NCBI GenBank assembly: GCA_963844715.1
Contig: CAWJPJ010000006.1
Span: 928,001-992,000 of the forward strand
From: an uncultured Phycisphaerales bacterium
Lineage (GTDB): Bacteria; Planctomycetota; Phycisphaerae; Tepidisphaerales; Tepidisphaeraceae
Length of the DNA stretch: 64,000 bases
Reading direction: 5' to 3'
The notes below the pieces were generated by a model. It was not told where the DNA came from, made no database searches, and was given only the letters and a program-made list of their open reading frames with translations. Each line of letters opens with the position of its first letter. Within the stretch, counting starts at the first letter, position 1. The position numbers and the translations under genes are program-made. Shown piece after piece: positions 1,302 through 28,096 of the stretch.

Positions 1302-3009
1302 ATACAGCGCACATCGAACAACTCGTCCATGATACGGTCGATCTCACCGGCGCTGCCCCCCCGCCGCTGCTGGAGGATAATTCGCCGACGCTCAGGGACG
1401 ACGCACTGGACGGCGAGATGTATCTCGTCGGCTTGATCGGCGGGAAAGACGTCGGCAAGAGCGCGCTGGTCAATGCGCTGGTCGGGCAGTCGATCACGCA
1501 AAGCACCAGTCACGGACCGGGAACGGAAAATGTGATCGCTTATGCCCACGCGGATCAGAAAGCGGAACTTTCAAAACTTCTGGACGCCCAGACGCCCGGC
1601 AGCTACATGATCGTGACTCATCGGCAGGAGGAACTGCGGAACCAGGTTTTGCTCGATTTGCCGGATATCGATAGCCGGTTCGCGGAGCATGTGCAGACTA
1701 CGCGGAAGATGCTGCGGCACATGCTTTTCCCGCTTTGGATTCAGAGCATCGAGAAGTATGCGGATGCCCAGCCGCAGAGTCTCTTGGCGCAGGTTGCGGC
1801 GGGGAACGATCCGAAGAATTTTCTCTTCTGTCTCAATAAAGTCGATCAGCTTGTGCGGAAGGAAAAGACGGCGGCCGACACGCTGCGGCAGGATTACGCG
1901 GCGCGCATCGCCAGGGTGCTTTCACTGCCGGAGCCGCCGAAGGTGTTGCTGATCTCCGCGATTCAGCCGGAGGCTTGGGATTTGCCGGCTTTGGCGAAAT
2001 TGCTCTCACGCCAGAAATCGAGCGGGGACGTCGCAGATTCCCTGCGCCTGCGCAAAAGCGGCGGCAGCGATCGCTTCTGGATTGGCTGGTCGCCCAGGAT
2101 TTGCCGGCGCGGGCGGCGCGCCTCGCGAGATTGGAAGATGAAGCATCCGATTTGCTCAGCGAGAGACTTGGGGAGCCGGTGATCGAGGAAGTGGTGCCCG
2201 GGATTTTGGATGATGCCGCGTACAGGTCGGTGATGACCGAGGGATTGTTCGATCGGCGTGTGGCGCGCTGGCCGGTGGTAAATATTTTGCATGCGGCTTT
2301 GTCGCCGCTGCTCATCGTGATTCGAGAAAACGCGGCGGCGGGAAGCGGCTTCGGCGGAGCTGATTCCCTGGTCGATGGACACCTGTCGGCACTCCAGCCG
2401 GATGTGCCGGCGAACATACAATCCGCCTTCGCTCAGTTGCACCAGACGAACCCGGCCGTCGCGGACCTCTACACGCGGCGGAAATTGTGGGAGTCGATGG
2501 ACGCCCAGGCGGCCGCGGCGTCTCTGCGCGGACAAATGATCGAAACCGTTCAGCGCCAGCGGCAAGCCGTCCTGGAGAAACTTTCCGGCGGCGAGGGGTG
2601 CCTGTCGCCGATCGTTCGCGTCGGATTGACGATCGGGGCGATCGTCTGGTTCCCGATCGTTCAGCCGATCCTGATGTTGATGCTGACAGCCGGCTCGCCC
2701 CTGCGAAGCTTGCACGACGCCGGAGTGATGTTCGTCGAAGTGATGAGCACGGAGGTCCTGCTTAAAAACGCCGTTTTCCTGCTCCTCTGGCACTTTTTCC
2801 TGTGGGCGATGCTCCGCTGGGACACGCGGCGGCGAGTGGACCACCTCCTGAGCGACTGGCAATCCGCCAAAAATCCCGATGCGGAGATGAATCTGACGAC
2901 CGTGGCGCTCCGATGGATCGATGATTTGACGAAGGAAATCCGATCGGCCAAGGGGACGACGGAGAGTCTGTCGGCGAAGGTGGAAACCCTCCGCGCCGAA
3001 CTAACGTAA
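1298..3009 (+). CDS. Second P-loop GTPase (dynamin-like) with C-terminal TM segments; frameshift near 2050
   Basis: GLIGGKDVGKS (G1), LLDLPDIDS (G3), NKVD (G4) in 1298..2182, continuing in 1975..3009 with two TM helices; ATGA overlap with the upstream GTPase. Confidence 0.7.
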
Positions 3010-3069
3010 ACACGTTCTTTACACAATCCTAATACCAAAGCGTATGGAAATGGCGAAGATGGGCGTTCC

Positions 3070-4581
3070 ATGGCGGCAGACTCTCAAGGACGAGAATCGT
3101 CTCGTGGGCTCTCAAAGCCTGCGCCGGCCTGGCTGGGGAAGAAGGTCGGGCGGTTCAGACTGCTGGCAAGCGTGGGGCAGGGGTCGATGGGGCGGGTCTT
3201 TCGGGCCGAGGATTCCAATCTCAATCGGCAGGTCGCTCTCAAGGTTTTGCCTAACAAGTTGAAGCTTGACGACGAGGAAGTCGCCGTCGAGCAGTTCATT
3301 CGCGAGGCGCGGTCGGCCGCGACGCTGGAACACCCCAACGTCGTGCACATCTACGAAGTCAACCAGACGGACAAAATCTGGTATATCGCCATGGAGCTTC
3401 TGGAGGGGGGGAACCTGCGCGAGTTGATCAAAGCCAACGGGCCGATGGACATGATTCGCGCCTGTCAGGTAGCCGCGGAAGCGGCGGAGGCGCTGGATTA
3501 CGCTCACAAGGCGGGGATTGTGCATCGCGACGTAAAGCCGGCGAATTTAATGCTCACGCGCACCGGGCGATGCAAATTGACGGATTTCGGCCTGGCGAGG
3601 ATCGACGACGCGAACGATTCGTTTCACATGGGGACGGAGAGCGTCGGCACGCCGCTCTACGCCGCGCCGGAAGTCACCCGTGGGCGGGCGGCGCAGGCGT
3701 CGGCGGATATCTACAGCCTTGGGTGCACGCTCTATTACCTTCTGACGGGGACGCCGCCGTTTTACGCCAAGACCGCTCCTGAGCTGATGCAGTTGCATCA
3801 GACGGCCCCCCCGCCGCATTTGTGCAATGATCGGCCGGACCTGCCGGAGACGCTCGCCCAGGCGATCATCCGGGCCATGGCCAAAGAGCCGGAGGAGCGA
3901 TTCGAATCGGCCGGACAGTTTGCCAAGGTTTTGCGCATGCACACGATTCCGGTCTCGGGATCGGGATCGGGATTAGGGGCGGGATCGGGATCGGCGGCGA
4001 ATTTCATGCAGGGGAGCGGGTCGAATCCGCTCGCGCCGGCGGCCGCGCCGCAGTTTTCTCGGCGTTTACTTGTTGGCGGAAGCATCGCCGCGGTTCTGGT
4101 TCTGGCCGGCGGAATTTCCGCGGCGGTTTATTTCGCGGCTCGGTCTGAAGCTCCGCCCATGCTGGCCGCGCCCCGGGTTACAGTCCAGCCGGCGGCGGAC
4201 GTGCAGAATTCCGTGCCGCCACCGCCACCGAAAGCCGACGCCCTGCAAGAGAATCTCGTTCCCGCCGCGACTTTCCAGGCTTCAGAGACCTCCCGCTTGA
4301 TGGCGATCGCCAAGGGGGATGATCCCAGACTTGCGGGGAAGCCGGTATCCGTCGTGGGTCAGATCGCCACGATTCACCCCACGCCGTCGGGCAAGTCGAT
4401 GCGGATTGAATTCGTGGGGTCGGATTCCGATGTCTTTTGCGCAACGTGCCCGCCGTCGTTGGCTAAATTGATTCAGGATGGATTTACGGGCCGGCTGATC
4501 CGCATTACTGGAGTTCCCCTGCTGCATAAGGATCGGGCGGAAATTCGCATCGATTCGCTGGATCAGATTCAGGCGAATTGA
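3070..4581 (+). CDS. Hanks-type Ser/Thr protein kinase with TM helix and C-terminal extracytoplasmic (possibly OB-fold) domain
   Basis: GQGSMG, VALK, HRDVKPAN, DFG and APE motifs; TM segment LLVGGSIAAVLVLAGGISAAVYF. Confidence 0.93.
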   Translation: MAADSQGRESSRGLSKPAPAWLGKKVGRFRLLASVGQGSMGRVFRAEDSNLNRQVALKVLPNKLKLDDEEVAVEQFIREARSAATLEHPNVVHIYEVNQTDKIWYIAMELLEGGNLRELIKANGPMDMIRACQVAAEAAEALDYAHKAGIVHRDVKPANLMLTRTGRCKLTDFGLARIDDANDSFHMGTESVGTPLYAAPEVTRGRAAQASADIYSLGCTLYYLLTGTPPFYAKTAPELMQLHQTAPPPHLCNDRPDLPETLAQAIIRAMAKEPEERFESAGQFAKVLRMHTIPVSGSGSGLGAGSGSAANFMQGSGSNPLAPAAAPQFSRRLLVGGSIAAVLVLAGGISAAVYFAARSEAPPMLAAPRVTVQPAADVQNSVPPPPPKADALQENLVPAATFQASETSRLMAIAKGDDPRLAGKPVSVVGQIATIHPTPSGKSMRIEFVGSDSDVFCATCPPSLAKLIQDGFTGRLIRITGVPLLHKDRAEIRIDSLDQIQAN

Positions 4582-4690
4582 ATCCTAATCTTTCTCTTTC
4601 TCTTTCTCTTAATCCAAATCCTAATCCTAATCTTCATCTTAATCGTAATCTCGGAAACGGATTCGCGCACGGCGACTCGAATGAGATTAA

Positions 4691-5584
4691 GAGCCTCTAA
4701 CAAAAATGCGAATGAAGCCTGTTCCAACAGATCATTGCCTCACCCACGGTCATGAACGCGGCGTGGATGTCGGGCCGTTTTTCGTAACGGACTCGCAGTC
4801 GGCGATTCTGATGCAACCAACTCAGCGTACGCTCCACCGGCCAGCGGGTTTTGCCAAGACCACTTCCGTGCGGGCGGTTGCGTCGGGCCAGCAACGGGCG
4901 GCTGCCACGCTGACGCAACGCCTTTCGGTGCGGTTCGGAGTGATACGCCCGGTCTCCCTGCACCACCTCGAACCGCCAGCGCGGCCGGCCCGGTTTGCCC
5001 GAGACCTTTGGAATCGCATCGATCAGCGGCAGCAGTTGCGTGATGTCGTGGCGGTTGGCCGCCGTCAGGAGGGCAACCATCGGCGTGCCGTTGCCATCGG
5101 TCAATACATGGTGCTTGGAACCGTTTTTCCTGCGATCTACCGGGCTCGGACCCGTTTTTTTCCCCCGTGCACGGCCCGCACGGAAGCAGAATCCACCAAG
5201 GCCCGCGACCAGTCGATGGCATTCGACCGCCGCAATCGATTCAGCAATAGTCCGTGCAGCTTCGTCCAAACCCCACGATGGTTCCAATCGCGCAGTCGAC
5301 GCCAGCAACTCATGCCGCTGCCGCATCCCATCTCCTGGGGAAGGTATTCCCACGGAATGCCGGTTTTGAGCACGAACAGAATACCCGACAACGCCGCGCG
5401 ATCGTCCAGCGGCGGCCGGCCGCGCTTTCCTGGACCACTGCGGTGCTTGGGAAGCAGGGGTCGGATCAACTCCCAAAGCTCGTCGGTCACCAACGGCTTG
5501 GTCATAAAGCCCTCCATGGCTAAGACCAAGCCGTATTGTCCGATCAACCATAAACATGGGGAAGTGCATTTTTGTTAGAGGCTC
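4691..5584 (-). mobile_element. IS5-family (IS427-like group) insertion sequence
   Basis: Perfect 19-bp terminal inverted repeats GAGCCTCTAACAAAAATGC (4691-4709 and 5566-5584); TAA target duplication (4688-4690 and 5585-5587). Confidence 0.92.
4697..5505 (-). CDS. IS5 transposase, orfA/orfB joined by a probable programmed -1 frameshift
   Basis: orfA MTKPLVTDELWELIRPLLP...TGIPWEYLP; slippery GGGGGAAAAAAAC near 5154-5166; orfB GSKHHVLTDGNG...GDRAY...RWPVERTLSWL...RYEK; stop codon lies within the IR. Confidence 0.9.
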
Positions 5585-5653
5585 TAAGATTAAGATGAGG
5601 ATTAAGATTATGAAGAGGAGTAAGAGTAAGAGAAAGATTAGGAACTTGGGCGT

Positions 5654-20144: not shown

Positions 20145-21032
20145 GGGCCTGTCTGATGAATCGCTTTTGGTTATAAATAGCGGTTTTCAGACGAGGTGTC
20201 ACGGATGCGACGTTATGAGCTCACGGATGAGCAGTACGAGTTGATCGGCGATCTGCTGCCCGGCAACGGCAAGCGCGGCGGGCAGTGGAACGACCACCGC
20301 ACCACGCTCAACGGCATGTTCTGGATTCTGCACTCGGGCGCTCAATGGCGCGAGATGCCCGAACGTTACGGCAGATGGCAAAGCGTCTACGACCGCTTCA
20401 ACCGCTGGAGAAAGGACGGAACGATTGATCGAATCCTCCAGCGGCTGCAGATGAGGTTGGACAAGCAAGGACGAATCGACTGGGACCTGTGGTGCATCGA
20501 CGGCACCAATGTGCGAGCCAGTCGATCCGCCGCCGGAGCCAGAAAATCAAAACCGCCCCGGAAGAACCGGCGGATCACGCGTTGGGCCGCAGCCGAGGCG
20601 GGTGGGGCAGCAAGCTCCACCTGGTTACTGACGGCCAGGGAGTTCCGCTCGCCGTCGAGGCCATGCGCCGGCCAATGCCACGAGAGCCGGTACGTGGAGC
20701 CGGTGATGAACGCGATGCGCATCGGTCGCCGCCGTCGTCGCCCCAGGAGGCTGGCGGGCGACAAGGGATACAGTTACGGAAATGTGCGGCGATGGCTGCG
20801 TCGCCACCGAATCCAAGCGGTGATCCCGGCGAAATCGAATCAGCCGCCGCAGGAGAACTTTGATCGCAAGGCGTATCGCCGACGGAACGTGGTGGAGCGT
20901 TGCGTGAATTGGATGAAGGAGAATCGCCGCCTGGGCACGCGTTACGAGAAACTGGCGGTGAACTTTCAGGCCATGGCCAAGCTCGCCATGATCCGTCGCT
21001 ATTTCAGGATTTTGGATTCATCAGACAGGCCC
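20145..21032 (+). mobile_element. IS5-family insertion sequence in a CTAG target
   Basis: Perfect IRs GGGCCTGTCTGATGAATC (20145-20162) and GATTCATCAGACAGGCCC (21015-21032); CTAG at both ends (20142-20145, 21032-21035); exact IR/TSD boundary is ambiguous. Confidence 0.92.
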
Positions 21033-21035
21033 TAG
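20205..21035 (+). CDS. IS5 transposase; central segment encoded in an alternative frame
   Basis: RRYELTDEQY, WREMPERYGRWQSVYDRF, IDGTNVRA; ALGRSRGGWGSKLHLVTDG in the other frame; GDKGY and YRRRNVVER. Confidence 0.88.
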   Translation: MRRYELTDEQYELIGDLLPGNGKRGGQWNDHRTTLNGMFWILHSGAQWREMPERYGRWQSVYDRFNRWRKDGTIDRILQRLQMRLDKQGRIDWDLWCIDGTNVRASRSAAGARKSKPPRKNRRITRWAAAEAGGAASSTWLLTAREFRSPSRPCAGQCHESRYVEPVMNAMRIGRRRRRPRRLAGDKGYSYGNVRRWLRRHRIQAVIPAKSNQPPQENFDRKAYRRRNVVERCVNWMKENRRLGTRYEKLAVNFQAMAKLAMIRRYFRILDSSDRP

Positions 21036-24198: not shown

Positions 24199-24625
24199 GG
24201 GAAATAACCTATTTCAATTACTTTGATTTGTCAAATCAAATTAATATGGGCGTCGCATGGGAAGAGAATGGGGCATCTTTACACGGGTCCGGTCACAGGC
24301 GGTTCCGCCTGGGGGGGCCTGGCATCAGAAATGAACTTCGCAAGGCACCGAACGTTTTCAAAAACCAGCGTCTGGGGCGCGAAATGCAAAAATGCGATTT
24401 TTGGCTTGATTTTTTCATTTTTTGTGAAACAATTCATCCTCGTTCGACGTTATGTCGATGGAGAAACCTATGCGGCAGCGATATCAAATTAATATGTTCG
24501 GTACACCAGCCAAACGAGTCGGATCATCCGAACTCGATTGGGCGATACTATAACTCCCCCGCCGCGTCGGCCGGGAGTTCTTCCCGGCTGAAAGTAATCG
24601 TTACATTCAATTCCGGGAAGAATTT

Positions 24626-24698
24626 GGGCCTGTAGCTCAGCGGCCAGAGTGCTTGCTCGACACGCAAGAGGTCCGTGGTTCGATTCCACGCCGGCCCA
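24626..24698 (+). tRNA. tRNA-Val(GAC)
   Basis: Anticodon arm CTTGC-TC GAC AC-GCAAG; T-loop TTCGATT. Confidence 0.88.
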
Positions 24699-24721
24699 CT
24701 CTCGGTTCGCGCCGCATTCGG

Positions 24722-24959
24722 GCGCCTAGAGCGGCTTGCGGCTCCGCGTAGCGAGCCAGTTGGCCTCGGCTGCAACGGAGGCAAGGATGAACGACGAGGC
24801 GTATCAGAAAATCAGATACGTTGAGGAGCGAAGACGCGGCATCCGTTGCAGCCGTGGACAAATGGCCGCTAGGCGGAGCCGCAATCCGCTCTAAGCTCAA
24901 TCGGCGAGAGCGCCGCGCTTACATCGCGGAGGATGTTGGTTCGAGTCCAGCTTGGCGCA
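24722..24959 (+). tRNA. tRNA-Val(TAC) interrupted by a hairpin insert (24727-24893)
   Basis: 5' GCGCC at 24722 pairs with 3' GGCGC-A at 24954-24959; D arm, CCGCG-CT TAC AT-CGCGG and T arm follow the insert. Confidence 0.78.
24727..24893. mobile_element. MITE-like long hairpin inserted in tRNA-Val(TAC)
   Basis: Ends TAGAGCGG...CCGCTCTA; about 55-bp imperfect stem; TA at both ends. Confidence 0.7.
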
Positions 24960-25050
24960 TGGAGATGAAAAATGACGGGAATGCCCGGAAAATCAAGGTG
25001 TTTTCGCGTTGTTGACTGAACGGAAACGCCGCGAGAATCAAGGTTTTTTT

Positions 25051-25122
25051 GCGCTGTTAGCTCAGAGGCAGAGCACCCGGCCGATAACCGGGAGGCCGGA
25101 GAGTCGAGAACTCCACGGCGCA
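25051..25122 (+). tRNA. tRNA-Ile(GAT), atypical T arm
   Basis: CCCGG-CC GAT AA-CCGGG; acceptor GCGCTGT/ACGGCGC; T-loop GTCGAGA is non-canonical. Confidence 0.72.
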
Positions 25123-25187
25123 CTGAATTGGCGACGCGTCGTTAGCAGGCAAATGGATTCTCGCTGAACCCCGCGCGCTCTTCTCTT

Positions 25188-25228
25188 CCCCCCTCTCCCG
25201 GTACTCCGGGGGAGGGCTGGGGTGGGGG
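25188..25228. repeat. REP-like element
   Basis: CCCCTCTCCCGGTACTCCGGGGGAGGGCTGGGGTGGGGG, resembling the common CCCTCTCCC/GGGAGAGGG REP class. Confidence 0.65.
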
Positions 25229-25275
25229 CCGGCGCAATTCAGGCAAGATCCGCGGTAATCGGCAGTTCGCCTCGG

Positions 25276-25350
25276 GCACTGGTAGCTCAACTGGATCAGA
25301 GTTCCGGTCTACGAAACCGGAGGTTGAAGGTTCGACCCCTTCCCAGTGCG
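25276..25350 (+). tRNA. tRNA-Arg(ACG)
   Basis: CCGGT-CT ACG AA-ACCGG; acceptor GCACTGG/CCAGTGC. Confidence 0.9.
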
Positions 25351-25407
25351 TTATGAACGAAAAATGGTTGTATATATATCTATTGCAATACAACCAGAAG
25401 TGTCCGC

Positions 25408-25479
25408 GCACTCGTAGCTTAAGGGTTAAGCCGCCGGTTCTTACCCGGCCTGATGCAGGTTCGAATCCTGCCGGGTGCA
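25408..25479 (+). tRNA. tRNA-Lys(CTT)
   Basis: GCCGG-TT CTT AC-CCGGC; T-loop TTCGAAT. Confidence 0.85.
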
Positions 25480-25534
25480 TGAAAGGAGAATCGAAAAATG
25501 AGCCCGAGCAGAACCAAACGGTGCAGGTAAATCC

Positions 25535-25609
25535 GCACCGGTAGCTCAATGGAAACAGAGCAACCCTCTTCTAAAGGGTCGGCTGAGGGTTCGAGTCCCT
25601 CCCGGTGCA
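25535..25609 (+). tRNA. tRNA-Arg(TCT)
   Basis: ACCCT-CT TCT AA-AGGGT. Confidence 0.9.
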
Positions 25610-25623
25610 TGTAGATTCCGCGC

Positions 25624-25695
25624 GCACCGGTAGCTCAACGGCAGAGCCGCCGCCTTTTAAGCGGAGTGATGCGGGTTCGAGTCCTGCTCGGTGCA
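25624..25695 (+). tRNA. tRNA-Lys(TTT)
   Basis: CCGC-CT TTT AA-GCGG. Confidence 0.88.
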
Positions 25696-25707
25696 TGAAT
25701 ACACCAC

Positions 25708-25781
25708 GGTTCAGTAGCCCAATCGGCAGAGGCGCCTGACTCAGAATCAGGATAGTGCAGGTTCGAATCCTGCCTGAACTA
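25708..25781 (+). tRNA. tRNA-Leu(CAG), short variable loop
   Basis: CCTGA-CT CAG AA-TCAGG; 5-nt variable loop ATAGT; A73. Confidence 0.85.
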
Positions 25782-25792
25782 TTTCGGCGAAC

Positions 25793-25868
25793 GTTGCGGT
25801 AGCTCAATCGGATTCAGAGCGCGGCCCTCCGAAGGCCGAGGGTGAAGGTTCGATTCCTTCCCGCGACA
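25793..25868 (+). tRNA. tRNA-Arg(CCG)
   Basis: CGGCC-CT CCG AA-GGCCG. Confidence 0.9.
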
Positions 25869-25878
25869 TCGAAAATTC

Positions 25879-25950
25879 GGGCCCGTCGTCTAACGGAAAG
25901 ACTCCTGGCCTGCACCCAGGAAATGAGGGTTCAATTCCCTCCGGCGTCCA
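25879..25950 (+). tRNA. tRNA-Ala(TGC)
   Basis: CCTGG-CC TGC AC-CCAGG; G3-U70 retained; one extra base in the 3' acceptor strand. Confidence 0.82.
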
Positions 25951-26036
25951 TGCGAGCGGCTTCGTCCGCTCCAGAAAGAAGGTGATCGATCATGAGCGAA
26001 AACTCATCGGAAAGTTCATCTAGCGGCTCCACATCC

Positions 26037-26124
26037 GGAGGGTTGGCTGAACGGCTAAGGCACCCGTCTCGAAAACGGGCATTCCCGATGACTGGGATTG
26101 GGGGTTCGAATCCCTCACCCTCCG
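26037..26124 (+). tRNA. tRNA-Ser(CGA)
   Basis: CCCGT-CT CGA AA-ACGGG; long variable arm. Confidence 0.9.
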
Positions 26125-26149
26125 CTGAAGTAAACGAGAACGTGCGCAT

Positions 26150-26239
26150 GGAGGGTTGGCAGAGCGGACGATTGCGCCGCGGTGCTAACGCGGAAGGCGC
26201 CGACTAGGCGTCTCGAAGGTTCGAATCCTTCACCCTCCT
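26150..26239 (+). tRNA. tRNA-Ser(GCT)
   Basis: CCGCG-GT GCT AA-CGCGG; long variable arm. Confidence 0.88.
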
Positions 26240-26282
26240 TTGGAATGTGCGAGAGGGAACGGAGCTGGTCCGTTCCCGGAAT

Positions 26283-26294
26283 GTTCTTTGACAA
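26283..26294 (+). promoter_or_regulatory. boxA-like antitermination sequence inside the tRNA array
   Basis: GTTCTTTGACAA resembles rrn boxA (GCTCTTTAACAA); preceded by hairpin GGGAACGGA...TCCGTTCCC. Confidence 0.5.
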
Positions 26295-26310
26295 TCCGGT
26301 GGCGTAATTC

Positions 26311-26384
26311 GCCGTCATAGCTCAGTCGGGATGAGCGTCCGGTCGTCAACCGGAAGGTCATGGGTTCGATTCCCATTGGCGGCG
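26311..26384 (+). tRNA. tRNA-Asp(GTC)
   Basis: TCCGG-TC GTC AA-CCGGA; G73. Confidence 0.87.
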
Positions 26385-26412
26385 TTGGGCGCGAATTCCG
26401 CGCGCCTTCGAA

Positions 26413-26484
26413 GTGGATTTAGCTCAATCGGTAGAGCAGAGGTCTGAAAATCCTCCCGCCCTGGTTCAATTCCAGGAATCCACA
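26413..26484 (+). tRNA. tRNA-Phe(GAA)
   Basis: GAGGT-CT GAA AA-TCCTC; acceptor GTGGATT/AATCCAC. Confidence 0.87.
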
Positions 26485-26506
26485 TGTCGGCCAAAGGCCG
26501 CGAATC

Positions 26507-26578
26507 GCGTCGGTAGTTCAGCGGGTGGAACACCGCTATGCCAAGGCGGAGGCCCGGGTTCGATCCCCGGCCGGCGCA
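26507..26578 (+). tRNA. tRNA-Gly(GCC)
   Basis: CCGCT-AT GCC AA-GGCGG. Confidence 0.87.
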
Positions 26579-26583
26579 TTCTC

Positions 26584-26655
26584 GCAGTGGTAACTCAATC
26601 GGCAGAGTACCGGTCTTCCAAACCGGCAACGTGGGTTCGAATCCCGCTCACTGCA
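26584..26655 (+). tRNA. tRNA-Gly(TCC)
   Basis: CCGGT-CT TCC AA-ACCGG. Confidence 0.88.
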
Positions 26656-26691
26656 CTAAAGGGACTTTCGACGGTTGAGGATCTTTTTCAA

Positions 26692-26764
26692 GCCGTGGTA
26701 GCTCAACGGGTAGAGCAGTCGTCTCGTAAACGACAGATTGCCGGTTCGATCCCGGCCCGCGGCT
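26692..26764 (+). tRNA. tRNA-Thr(CGT)
   Basis: GTCGT-CT CGT AA-ACGAC. Confidence 0.9.
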
Positions 26765-26777
26765 TTTCAAAAAAATC

Positions 26778-26851
26778 GGGTGCGTAGCTCAGCGGCAAGA
26801 GCAGGGGCCTCATAAGCCTCAGGTCGTTGGTTCAAATCCAACCGTTACCCA
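26778..26851 (+). tRNA. tRNA with CAT anticodon (elongator Met or Ile2; not initiator-like)
   Basis: GGGGC-CT CAT AA-GCCTC; G1-C72 paired; one extra T in the 3' acceptor strand. Confidence 0.8.
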
Positions 26852-26852
26852 G

Positions 26853-27203
26853 TCAGGGATAGTTCAAACCGGTAGAACGCTCGGCTCTGAACCGGGATGT
26901 TGGAGGTTTCGGAGCAGCTTCATCTGTTTTGTAGCGTCTGCGTTGCGTCCAGATGGGCCGGGCGCTAGGCAGAGCGACGAGTTGGGTCAGGCACAGCGAC
27001 CCGGCGAGGAGCGATAACGACGCGAACGGCCCATCTGGACGCAACCCTCCGGGTCGCCGCCTTTTGCGGCCCATGCGTCGTTACTCCTCCTCGCCGTATC
27101 GTTTCACCTGATACGACTCGTCGTCGCGCCTAGCCTGTGCCGCAAAAGGCGGCGACGCAGACGCTACAAAACAGATGAAACTGCTCTGATCCTTCTCCCT
27201 GAA
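26853..27203 (+). tRNA. tRNA-Gln(CTG) interrupted in the T-loop by a 277-nt insert
   Basis: TCAGGGA...CTCGG-CT CTG AA-CCGGG...GGAGG TTTC [insert 26911-27187] GAT CCTTC TCCCTGA A. Confidence 0.82.
26911..27187. mobile_element. Branched MITE-like hairpin insert in tRNA-Gln(CTG)
   Basis: Ends GGAGCAG...CTGCTCT; perfect 25-bp outer stem (26919-26943 with 27155-27179); two internal stems of 19 and 18 bp. Confidence 0.72.
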
Positions 27204-27204
27204 T

Positions 27205-27277
27205 TGAGCCGTAGTTTAATCGGTAGCAATGCCGGTCTTTGAATCCGGAGATCGTGGTTCAAATCCACGCGGCTCAA
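27205..27277 (+). tRNA. tRNA-Gln(TTG)
   Basis: CCGGT-CT TTG AA-TCCGG; acceptor TGAGCCG/CGGCTCA. Confidence 0.85.
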
Positions 27278-27283
27278 CTTCTT

Positions 27284-27356
27284 ACCCATGTAGCTCAACC
27301 GGTAGAGCAGGCGGCTGTTAACCGCCGTGGTGGTGGTTCGAATCCATCCGTGGGTG
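27284..27356 (+). tRNA. tRNA-Asn(GTT)
   Basis: GGCGG-CT GTT AA-CCGCC; G73. Confidence 0.88.
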
Positions 27357-27448
27357 TGGGCGGCGCTTCGCGCCACCAGAGCGTAGAAAGTAGAGGCCGA
27401 GAATTTTCTACTTTCCACTTTCCACGAACCACTTTCTCGCGCAGCGCC

Positions 27449-27520
27449 GCTCCTGTCGTCCAACGGTCAGGATACCGGGCCTTCAACCGGAGAATGTGGG
27501 TTCAATTCCCACCGGGAGTG
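27449..27520 (+). tRNA. tRNA-Glu(TTC)
   Basis: CCGGG-CC TTC AA-CCGG (one C short, possibly a homopolymer error); acceptor GCTCCTG/CGGGAGT. Confidence 0.75.
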
Positions 27521-27536
27521 CATGGAGAAATGATTT

Positions 27537-27610
27537 CAGCGTGTGGCGTAGCTTGGTAACGCACGTGCCTCGGGCGCACGGGATCGAAGGTTCGAATCCT
27601 TCCACGCTGA
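27537..27610 (+). tRNA. tRNA-Pro(CGG)
   Basis: CGTGC-CT CGG GC-GCACG; C1-G72, A73. Confidence 0.9.
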
Positions 27611-27615
27611 CTTTC

Positions 27616-27701
27616 GCGTAGGTCGCATAATTGGCATTGCAGCGGGCCGTAACCCCGCCGACCCTTAGTGGTCCCTGGGGGTTCAAATCCCTCCCTACGC
27701 A
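27616..27701 (+). tRNA. tRNA-Tyr(GTA)
   Basis: GCGGG-CC GTA AC-CCCGC; long variable arm. Confidence 0.85.
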
Positions 27702-27827
27702 TTGCCGCAAAGCGGCAATAGAGCGGTGGCGCAGTCGAACAGCCAACGAATGACTCGAGGAAATCGTCCCCGTCAGACGATCCCACCGCGGTCTACTGCT
27801 CCCCTGCTCTACTGTTCAGAATTTTCC

Positions 27828-27900
27828 GCGCCGGAAGTTCCAACGGCGGAACGCCCGCCTCCAAATCGGGAAGCGGCAGGTTCGATCCCTGCTCGGCGCG
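27828..27900 (+). tRNA. tRNA-Trp(CCA)
   Basis: CCCGC-CT CCA AA-TCGGG; G73; A at position 8. Confidence 0.82.
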
Positions 27901-27911
27901 CTGGCAGTTTC

Positions 27912-27983
27912 GAGGATGTGGCCGATTGGACAGGCGCGGGTCTGCAAAGCCCGTCGATGCTGGTTCGAATCCAGTCATCCTCT
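27912..27983 (+). tRNA. tRNA-Cys(GCA)
   Basis: CGGGT-CT GCA AA-GCCCG; U73. Confidence 0.88.
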
Positions 27984-27989
27984 TTTGAT

Positions 27990-28064
27990 GGTGGCCGTAG
28001 CTCAAACGGTCAGAGCACCGGGCTGTGAACCCGGTCGGTGTGAGTTCGAGTCTCACCGGTCACC
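27990..28064 (+). tRNA. tRNA-His(GTG)
   Basis: G-1/C73; CCGGG-CT GTG AA-CCCGG. Confidence 0.9.
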
Positions 28065-28096
28065 CTGTATTGCTGTTGATGGCTGGAAATTTGAGA

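Follow-up and report, generated by a model that had tools for sequence, protein, structure and literature searches.

The Interrupted tRNA Genes

The window analysed here, a 64,000-nucleotide stretch of the genome of an uncultured Phycisphaerales bacterium (Tepidisphaeraceae; assembly GCA_963844715.1, contig CAWJPJ010000006.1, positions 928,001 to 992,000), contains a dense array of tRNA genes, two of which are interrupted by short inserts sharing a structured core. The insert in tRNA-Val(TAC) is referred to as F1 and that in tRNA-Gln(CTG) as F2, and both names also denote the repeat families to which the inserts belong. F1 and F2 are new families of MITEs (small transposable elements with inverted repeats) of a known kind, with a payload that is unusually conserved, strand-specific, phylum-wide and exchangeable between ends. 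The two interrupted genes and their inserts comprise the following features.

24722..24728, + strand: 5' remnant GCGCC of tRNA-Val(TAC), then the left flanking TA (intact genes in the genomes G100 and G053 read GCGCC-NN-TA-GCTCAA)
24729..24891, + strand: F1 element, GAGC...GCTC, 163 bp, with one module and forming one long hairpin (from genome repeats and fold)
24729..24753, + strand: left terminal inverted repeat of F1, its positions 1-4 reading GAGC and 21-25 TAGCG (partner 24867-24891)
24760..24861, + strand: module copy 1, containing the core 24780-24838 (covariance model 89.8 bits)
24892..24959, + strand: right flanking TA, followed by tRNA-Val(TAC) from D arm to acceptor end, i.e., its 3' part (Rfam tRNA match 24888-24959, 48.4 bits; no call by ARAGORN)
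26852..26911, + strand: 5' part of tRNA-Gln(CTG), broken in the T loop (weak Rfam tRNA match 26853-26914, 24.6 bits; intact homologues in G005 and G015)
26912..27186, + strand: F2 element, GAGC...GCTC, 275 bp, with outer inverted repeats, a sense module, a 9-nt mini-hairpin and an antisense module
26943..27044, + strand: module copy 2, containing the core 26962-27024 (covariance model 110.7 bits)
27054..27155, - strand: module copy 3, containing the core 27075-27135 (106.8 bits on the - strand, 39.6 bits on the + strand)
27189..27203, + strand: 3' end of tRNA-Gln(CTG), with the end of the T loop, the 3' strands of the T and acceptor stems and the discriminator (from alignment with relatives)

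In the window sequence, the three cores lie within one base of where a preliminary description of this DNA had placed them. Its observation that the same core recurs at three places holds, as the pattern CGACGAG-N18-30-GAGGAG matches four times at these three places (one of them is counted twice owing to GAGGAGGAG) against a mean of 0.03 in shuffled sequences, and none of 100 shuffles reached four. Likewise, the apical stems of the three copies vary in sequence and keep their complementarity, as described. A single inverted-repeat element, F2, has copies 2 and 3 as its arms, and the likeness of these two copies is therefore not independent.

The inserts are not an assembly artefact, since contigs assembled from four public DNA runs of low depth span the F1 insert (24699-25000) and both the left (26553-26935) and the right (27127-27338) junction of F2 with zero differences. 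In these four low-depth runs, no insert-free form was seen at either tRNA locus. A consensus scan of window positions 24300-27500 returned no promoter-like sequence and four terminator-like ones, which equals the shuffle mean and which lie outside the inserts.

The array extends from 24626 to 28065 and includes 24 genes detected by ARAGORN, to which Rfam adds 24888-24959, 25051-25122 and, weakly, 26853-26914, giving 27 tRNA genes within 3.4 kb. Of the 74 tRNA genes of the genome, 24 lie in the array and the remainder forms a dispersed set including Val-TAC and Gln-CTG, which renders the array redundant. Intact counterparts of the interrupted genes occur in homologous arrays for tRNA-Gln(CTG) (G005, G015) and in G100 and G053 for tRNA-Val(TAC). 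F1 is inserted between position 5 of the acceptor stem and the D stem, F2 in the T loop. Because the array duplicates the dispersed set, the two interrupted copies are most likely simply knocked out. There is no special tie between the core and tRNA genes: only two of the 15 copies in the genome interrupt tRNA genes, the other 13 lie outside, and none of 37 further loci examined in this and other genomes is in a tRNA gene. The link between the elements and tRNA is incidental.

F1 and F2 as Mobile Repeat Families

Across the 8 contigs of the genome (4.55 Mb in total), the core pattern matched 27 times compared to six times for a reversed control, and the hairpin was present at nine places. BLAST searches of the genome revealed seven copies of F1 (163-173 bp, 84-100% identity), each consisting of one module in a single long hairpin, and for F2, which measures about 275 bp, six full copies (90-100% identity), one diverged copy and one fragment. 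Alignments including the flanks showed that all copies start with GAGC and end with GCTC, and F1 copies have YTA as their left and TAR as their right flank. All 13 full copies of both families feature terminal inverted repeats with 20-nt arms and no more than two mismatches, and inverted ends were also confirmed in 38 elements from many genomes. The elements are thus small and multicopy (163-280 bp, 15 copies and fragments), are filled with hairpins over their full length and carry no transposase gene of their own.

Insertion of F1 and F2 generates a 2-bp TA target duplication, as filled and empty sites demonstrate. In G001, which belongs to the same genus, the empty counterpart of the F1 copy C7:502799 reads cctTAcat, compared to cctTA[element]TAgaa here. 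The F2 copy at C4:233457 corresponds to gccTAaca in G001 and is found here as cccCA[element]TAtat, the left TA having mutated to CA. For a third site, the F1 copy at C6:754043, no orthologous site was matched in G001 or G002.

Three further observations concern individual copies. The F2 copy at C4:233457-233736 (L003 1437-1720) stops 3 bases ahead of the ATG of the next frame, and in G001 the TA target of the empty site is 2 bases ahead of the same ATG; the insertion therefore replaced the entire upstream leader of this gene. In three of the seven F1 copies (C7:1129767, C1:137339, C7:1359188) and in the F2 fragment C7:404440, the 3' half of the apical hairpin is swapped for a stretch of about 21 nt ending in TAGTTTCCGCAGGA. 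In the genome G210 (L208, G210:C76:25300-29000), two complete F2-like elements at 469-761 and 2895-3191 are inverted relative to each other, with arms 92-97% complementary and modules 2.5 kb apart. The interval between them contains one gene with TPR repeats and one with a zinc ribbon but no transposase, an arrangement which resembles a composite transposon without a transposase.

A Candidate Transposase

A scan of the genome for GAGC...GCTC ends with complementary 20-nt arms returned F1, F2 and two insertion sequences (ISs). One of these, IS1030, belongs to the IS630 family, measures 1030 bp and is present in 13 full copies, with TA within YTAR on the flanks. It comprises two frames meeting at a run of T and A: orfA encodes HTH_28, HTH_23 and a Tc3-type HTH, and orfB encodes DDE_3 (E 1.6e-31). 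IS1030 accounts for all 14 DDE_3 matches in the genome. Its first 25 bases are identical to those of one F2 subfamily at 20 positions (counted by eye), and GAGC at positions 1-4 together with TAGCG at 21-25 is common to all F1 and F2 ends. As end words, target and duplication are shared, IS1030 is the obvious candidate for moving F1 and F2, and its transposase most likely acts on them in trans, as far as the terminal sequences suggest.

The other one, IS898, is 898 bp long, occurs in 12 copies with a 3-bp duplication of TAA or TTA, and belongs to the IS5 family since it carries DUF4096 and DDE_Tnp_1. Searches with a covariance model of the module (see below) detected no autonomous module-carrying element in the genome and no module in any IS copy.

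A third resident element touches the same ends. This 1386-bp IS5-family element (DUF772 and DDE_Tnp_1, 4-bp YTAR duplication) is present in 12 near-identical copies, none of them in the window (e.g., C7:1129935-1131320). Seven of 11 inspected copies directly follow GCTCTAR, that is, an F1, F2 or IS1030 end plus TA, as if these ends were a preferred target of the element. A word similar to the stretch ending in TAGTTTCCGCAGGA also follows one of its copies.

The Conserved Module

The preliminary description had proposed a covariance model as a check on the core, and such a model, built from 15 module copies of this genome, identified 21 sense modules here, 14 in seven F2 and seven in F1, none elsewhere in the genome, and further ones across the Planctomycetota. 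The sense modules scored 90-113 bits and the opposite strand at the same places 38-47 bits. An alignment of 57 sense modules (56 distinct rows) from 36 sources supported a 36-pair structure, in which pairing extends to 88.8% of 1997 cells, compared to 61.7% in column shuffles and 33-37% with the partners slid by one to three columns. Changes on both sides occur in 32 of the 36 pairs, and the covariation score of 0.644 (shuffle mean 0.163) was reached by none of 500 shuffles, although these values are weakened by the fact that the alignment was fitted to the structure of the model and that many of its rows are related. The statement that the fold is conserved while the stems carrying it diverge was thereby corroborated. 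Nevertheless, these carrier stems are partly the terminal inverted repeats and would covary for that reason alone, as the same protein must bind both ends. Accordingly, the outer stems of F1 and F2 diverge between subfamilies and remain complementary, because both ends must fit one transposase.

The module is a rod of about 100 nt. Its basal helix of 17 bp, with up to four pair types per position, is followed by a clamp of a G-C and a C-G pair and a purine-rich internal loop, in which A27.G129 is found in 50, G28-C128 in 56 and G29.A127 in 53 of the 56 distinct rows, followed by C.A or A.G. Above this lie two 4-bp blocks whose middle two pairs are either G.A/A.G or Watson-Crick, with CGAC facing GGAG in this genome and GTCG, or CTCC facing GGAG, elsewhere. 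The tandem G.A beside the apical stem is near-invariant (G42.A117 in 55 and A44.G116 in 53 of 56 distinct rows) and is topped by a covarying R-Y pair (G-C 26, A-T 23). The apex consists of a 7-bp helix and a loop of about 4-9 nt without conserved letters.

Two details of the original description are consequently restricted to a narrower range of sequences. The opposition of CGACGAG and YGAGGAG with two tandem G.A pairs applies to this genome, but in general one tandem is invariant and the second block is variable, being Watson-Crick elsewhere. Every loop begins with AG in the three window copies, but not in the 57 modules as a whole, where the first loop column holds A 27, T 15, gap 10 and C 3 and the second G 25, A 17, gap 11 and T 2 (two rows not shown in each).

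The conserved GA words stand on both arms of one and the same strand and are, for this reason, not a duplex palindrome. The predicted RNA fold of F1 has an energy of -105 kcal/mol (z -10.1), and the predicted RNA hairpins are more stable in sense than in antisense orientation (-64.9 vs. -47.3 and -57.4 vs. -52.8 kcal/mol). The two modules of one F2 have different basal and apical helices, each self-complementary, which favours local hairpins for F2.

Kink-turns feature a three-nucleotide bulge and then tandem G.A pairs between two helices. The module departs from this motif: its invariant tandem G.A is likewise bordered by two helices, but in almost all rows neither strand is bulged there. In agreement with the earlier inability to assign the core to a named family, no match to Rfam 15 at gathering scores was found in the inserts. 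Even at E values up to 10, the only matches were a chance microRNA match (22.8 bits, cut-off 79) and tRNA fragments, with no group I intron among them.

Distribution and Exchange of Ends

Within the family Tepidisphaeraceae, the module was detected in 38 of 141 genomes and 22 of 76 genera, a count which includes one unpublished genome (G004) whose sequence was not used. In a sample of the class it occurred in 25 of 151 genomes from seven families, and in a sample of the phylum in 20 of 151 genomes with up to 23 copies per genome. The present genome is included in each of the three counts. Distant copies retain GC-N-AGG, CGA-R, Y-GAG and AAC-R-N-N-GC. An exact-pattern scan with one genome per species yielded at least 112 stretches, of which 80 were listed and examined. 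Among these 80 loci, 24 matched the model with at least 48 bits, all of them labelled Planctomycetota, Phycisphaerae, Phycisphaerales, Tepidisphaeraceae or 'Planctomycetales'; none of the 80 from other phyla attained 48 bits, and one Fibrobacteria record scored 41 bits. A distant-match search of plasmid and phage collections returned nothing similar.

The ends of the 38 elements from many genomes are of several unrelated kinds. In 16 of them, GAGC is followed by 16 variable bases and then TAGCGTCTGCG or a close variant. Four are of the F1 type, four (class B) start with GAGC[C/T]TCTAA and are IS898-like, three of the latter with a 3-bp TTA duplication, and two start with GGCTCTG. The remaining 12 possess other kinds of ends, e.g., GAACGTGTG, AAGAATCTATCTC, GAGGCTATCTC and GGGGCTCTAAC. 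Hence, at least five kinds of ends, unrelated to one another, flank the module across the Planctomycetota. Because of this variety, the module either outlives its terminal repeats or has repeatedly recombined with new ones.

Proposed Explanation and Its Alternatives

F1 and F2 would accordingly be non-autonomous DNA transposons (MITEs) moved by a DDE transposase in trans. They insert at TA within the target YTAR with duplication of the TA, and two of these insertions landed in the 27-gene tRNA array. The core, a rod measuring about 100 nt, represents the conserved payload inside the elements and would be under selection as one strand folded on itself, either as RNA from read-through transcription or as single-stranded or extruded DNA. 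F2, with one module per orientation, would present a sense module on whichever strand is read. We infer selection on a single self-folded strand, as opposed to a duplex or the upkeep of a palindrome, because the non-Watson-Crick pairs are invariant while their neighbours change freely; the GA words on both arms of the same strand and the higher predicted stability of the sense hairpin point in the same direction. The identity of F1 and F2 as MITEs together with a selected fold is considered highly probable. Of the earlier interpretation, the assignment to mobile DNA stands, but the lead towards an HUH or other single-stranded DNA transposase does not, in view of terminal inverted repeats, TA duplication and IS630-like (DDE) ends.

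Regarding the role of the fold, we would rank first an RNA-level site which may affect stability, processing or protein binding of neighbouring read-through transcripts, because some of the copies, several in number, are no more than a few bases away from adjacent reading frames and because Correia and ERIC elements, in the account of PMC2229807, provide precedents. Extruded or single-stranded DNA hairpins that might draw both ends together during transposition are ranked second, and the absence of any function third.

Several points weigh against this explanation. Mobilization by IS1030 rests on the likeness of the ends and the common target, and one transposase family cannot explain all module elements, since their ends differ widely and those of class B are associated with TTA. 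Neither tRNA junction is restored exactly from the sequences of relatives: at tRNA-Val, the F1 junction is one base off the simple TA duplication predicted from them, and at tRNA-Gln, the window copy of F2 is flanked by CG and TG where TA is expected, without a clean duplication. We take these inexact junctions as probable decay of disabled genes. Transcription of the module is presumed. Energy models of F2 slightly favour one rod joining the two modules over two local hairpins, both as RNA (-181 vs. -171 kcal/mol) and as DNA (-101 vs. -97 kcal/mol). Besides, five Y1_Tnp (HUH) genes are present in the genome, so that a role of such an enzyme is not barred by its absence.

It appears rather unlikely that the module is the functionless, inherited filling of an old MITE lineage whose hairpins are kept by palindrome upkeep at the DNA level, i.e., arm-to-arm repair or conversion. 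The elements are indeed palindromic throughout, compensated changes separate even copies about 90% alike in one genome, as arm-to-arm correction would produce, and there is no known transcript, protein partner or phenotype. Nevertheless, such correction should erase mismatches, while non-Watson-Crick pairing persists in 50-56 of 56 distinct rows at the two tandem G.A pairs and in the A.G/G-C/G.A loop, positions adjoining these invariant pairs switch freely between G.A and Watson-Crick, and the module persists throughout the phylum while its terminal repeats are exchanged. This persistence beyond the terminal repeats and the phylum-wide invariance of non-Watson-Crick pairs would be explained if the module were a structured RNA or single-stranded DNA in its own right, which binds a conserved planctomycete protein or acts as a catalytic or processing element and uses MITEs of several transposase families as vehicles, a reading that we regard as possible and hold only tentatively.

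It is very unlikely that an HUH (Y1) transposase reads the hairpins as signals in single-stranded DNA, in the manner of REP/RAYT or of elements derived from IS200/IS605. The specificity of the fold for one strand, the five Y1_Tnp genes above the Pfam cut-off and the word GTAGCG in the ends of F1 and F2 could be cited in favour of such a role, but GTAGCG is part of the end held in common with the IS630-family element, and the nearest Y1_Tnp gene on the same contig is about 17 kb away from any copy by coordinates. Moreover, the elements feature long terminal inverted repeats and TA duplications, neither of which HUH elements are known to possess. Elements derived from IS200/IS605 insert next to a fixed short word and are not known to have inverted ends or a duplication, whereas inverted ends and a TA duplication are present here. 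Finally, both inserts lie inside tRNA genes, on the tRNA strand, and the tRNA halves are otherwise well preserved, as would be expected if the inserts were introns or otherwise removed from the precursors of two working tRNAs. This is extremely improbable, given that 13 of 15 genome copies and all 37 other loci are outside tRNA genes, that the insertion points (acceptor/D-stem junction and T loop) are not in the anticodon loop, and that no group I intron or other Rfam match emerged even at E up to 10. Furthermore, excision of the element with one flank fails to restore the sequence of relatives exactly, and no contig joins across the inserts.

Relation to Described Repeat Systems

What lies between the inverted ends of a bacterial MITE is commonly regarded as arbitrary filling. 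In F1 and F2, this filling is conserved better than any other part. A fold serving the element would reveal what, besides its ends, makes a MITE successful; a fold serving the host would constitute a widespread structured RNA, absent from Rfam, in a phylum that has been little studied. In annotation, two 'broken' tRNA genes are accounted for by the elements, and the covariance model marks repeats that often end planctomycete contigs.

The REP/RAYT system likewise includes strand-specific hairpins repeated in intergenic DNA, and Y1 genes are present in this genome. REPs are not known to possess terminal repeats or target duplications, whereas F1 and F2, elements of 163-280 bp, have both, and no Y1 gene lies beside any copy. 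REPs are described as sequences of 20-40 bp in hundreds of copies, often paired in alternating orientation (PMC3733652, PMC2817692).

The nearest described systems are RUP with IS630-Spn1, Correia/NEMIS and ERIC/YPAL, which are compared here on the basis of PMC2229807. RUP of Streptococcus pneumoniae is a MITE thought to be moved by IS630-Spn1, the transposase of which is assumed to act in trans, and inserts at TA. It resembles F1 and F2 in being a small non-coding repeat with ends like those of a resident IS630-family element (here IS1030) and a TA target. Nevertheless, RUP measures 107 bp and is known from one species group, whereas F1 and F2 measure 163-280 bp, are phylum-wide and contain a 100-nt module with invariant non-Watson-Crick pairs, which, unlike RUP, is also found between other kinds of ends. 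The Correia/NEMIS elements of Neisseria have in common with F1 and F2 the terminal TA, inverted ends, transcripts forming long hairpins and an internal site proposed for a host factor (PMC2229807). In that case, the internal site is a duplex IHF site and the RNA hairpin, cut by RNase III, arises from the ends, whereas the conserved part of F1 and F2 is an internal, strand-specific, G.A-rich hairpin with no known host factor. The enterobacterial ERIC/YPAL elements are similar to F1 as intergenic repeats of 130-170 bp with end-to-end folding and with filled and empty sites among relatives; YPAL differs in the lack of a terminal TA and in duplications of variable length, compared to the TA duplication of F1 (PMC2229807). 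In the literature searched, with supplements outside the search, no description of the F1 and F2 elements or of the module was found; this includes passages of the review PMC10969869, a text in which 'Planctomycet' is absent.

Further Features of the Window and the Genome

The neighbourhood in the window is ordinary chromosomal DNA with a MarR regulator, glycosyltransferases, a chemoreceptor-like gene and an IS5-family transposase. The following features lie apart from the inserts.

4689-5586: IS898 copy, one of 12, with a 3-bp TNA duplication
20196-21035: further transposase frame of IS4/5 type
25183-25230: 48-nt G+C-rich hairpin repeat between two tRNA genes
27449-27521: ARAGORN tRNA with undetermined anticodon
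C7:856148, C6:612548, C8:63110, C6:877904 and C7:477178 (other positions in the genome): Y1_Tnp genes, open frames of 197-277 aa, two identical in score and frame length, none beside F1 or F2

The array is similar to the long tRNA gene arrays described in PMC4758250 and PMC8421152 with respect to its 27 genes in 3.4 kb beside a full dispersed set, and differs from them in that MITEs interrupt two of its members and another shows an irregular anticodon loop. The latter, at 27449-27521, is reported with the anticodon 'tt', and arrays of relatives have tRNA-Glu in this place; it is probably another decaying member of the array. The 48-nt repeat (CCCCTCTCCC...GGGGAGGG...GGGGTGGGGG) has dozens of matches with 85-98% identity in many genomes of the family and constitutes a separate, very abundant family of short repeats. 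In the metagenome contigs, the depth spikes at this repeat to 151.9, compared to about 5 (run X1).

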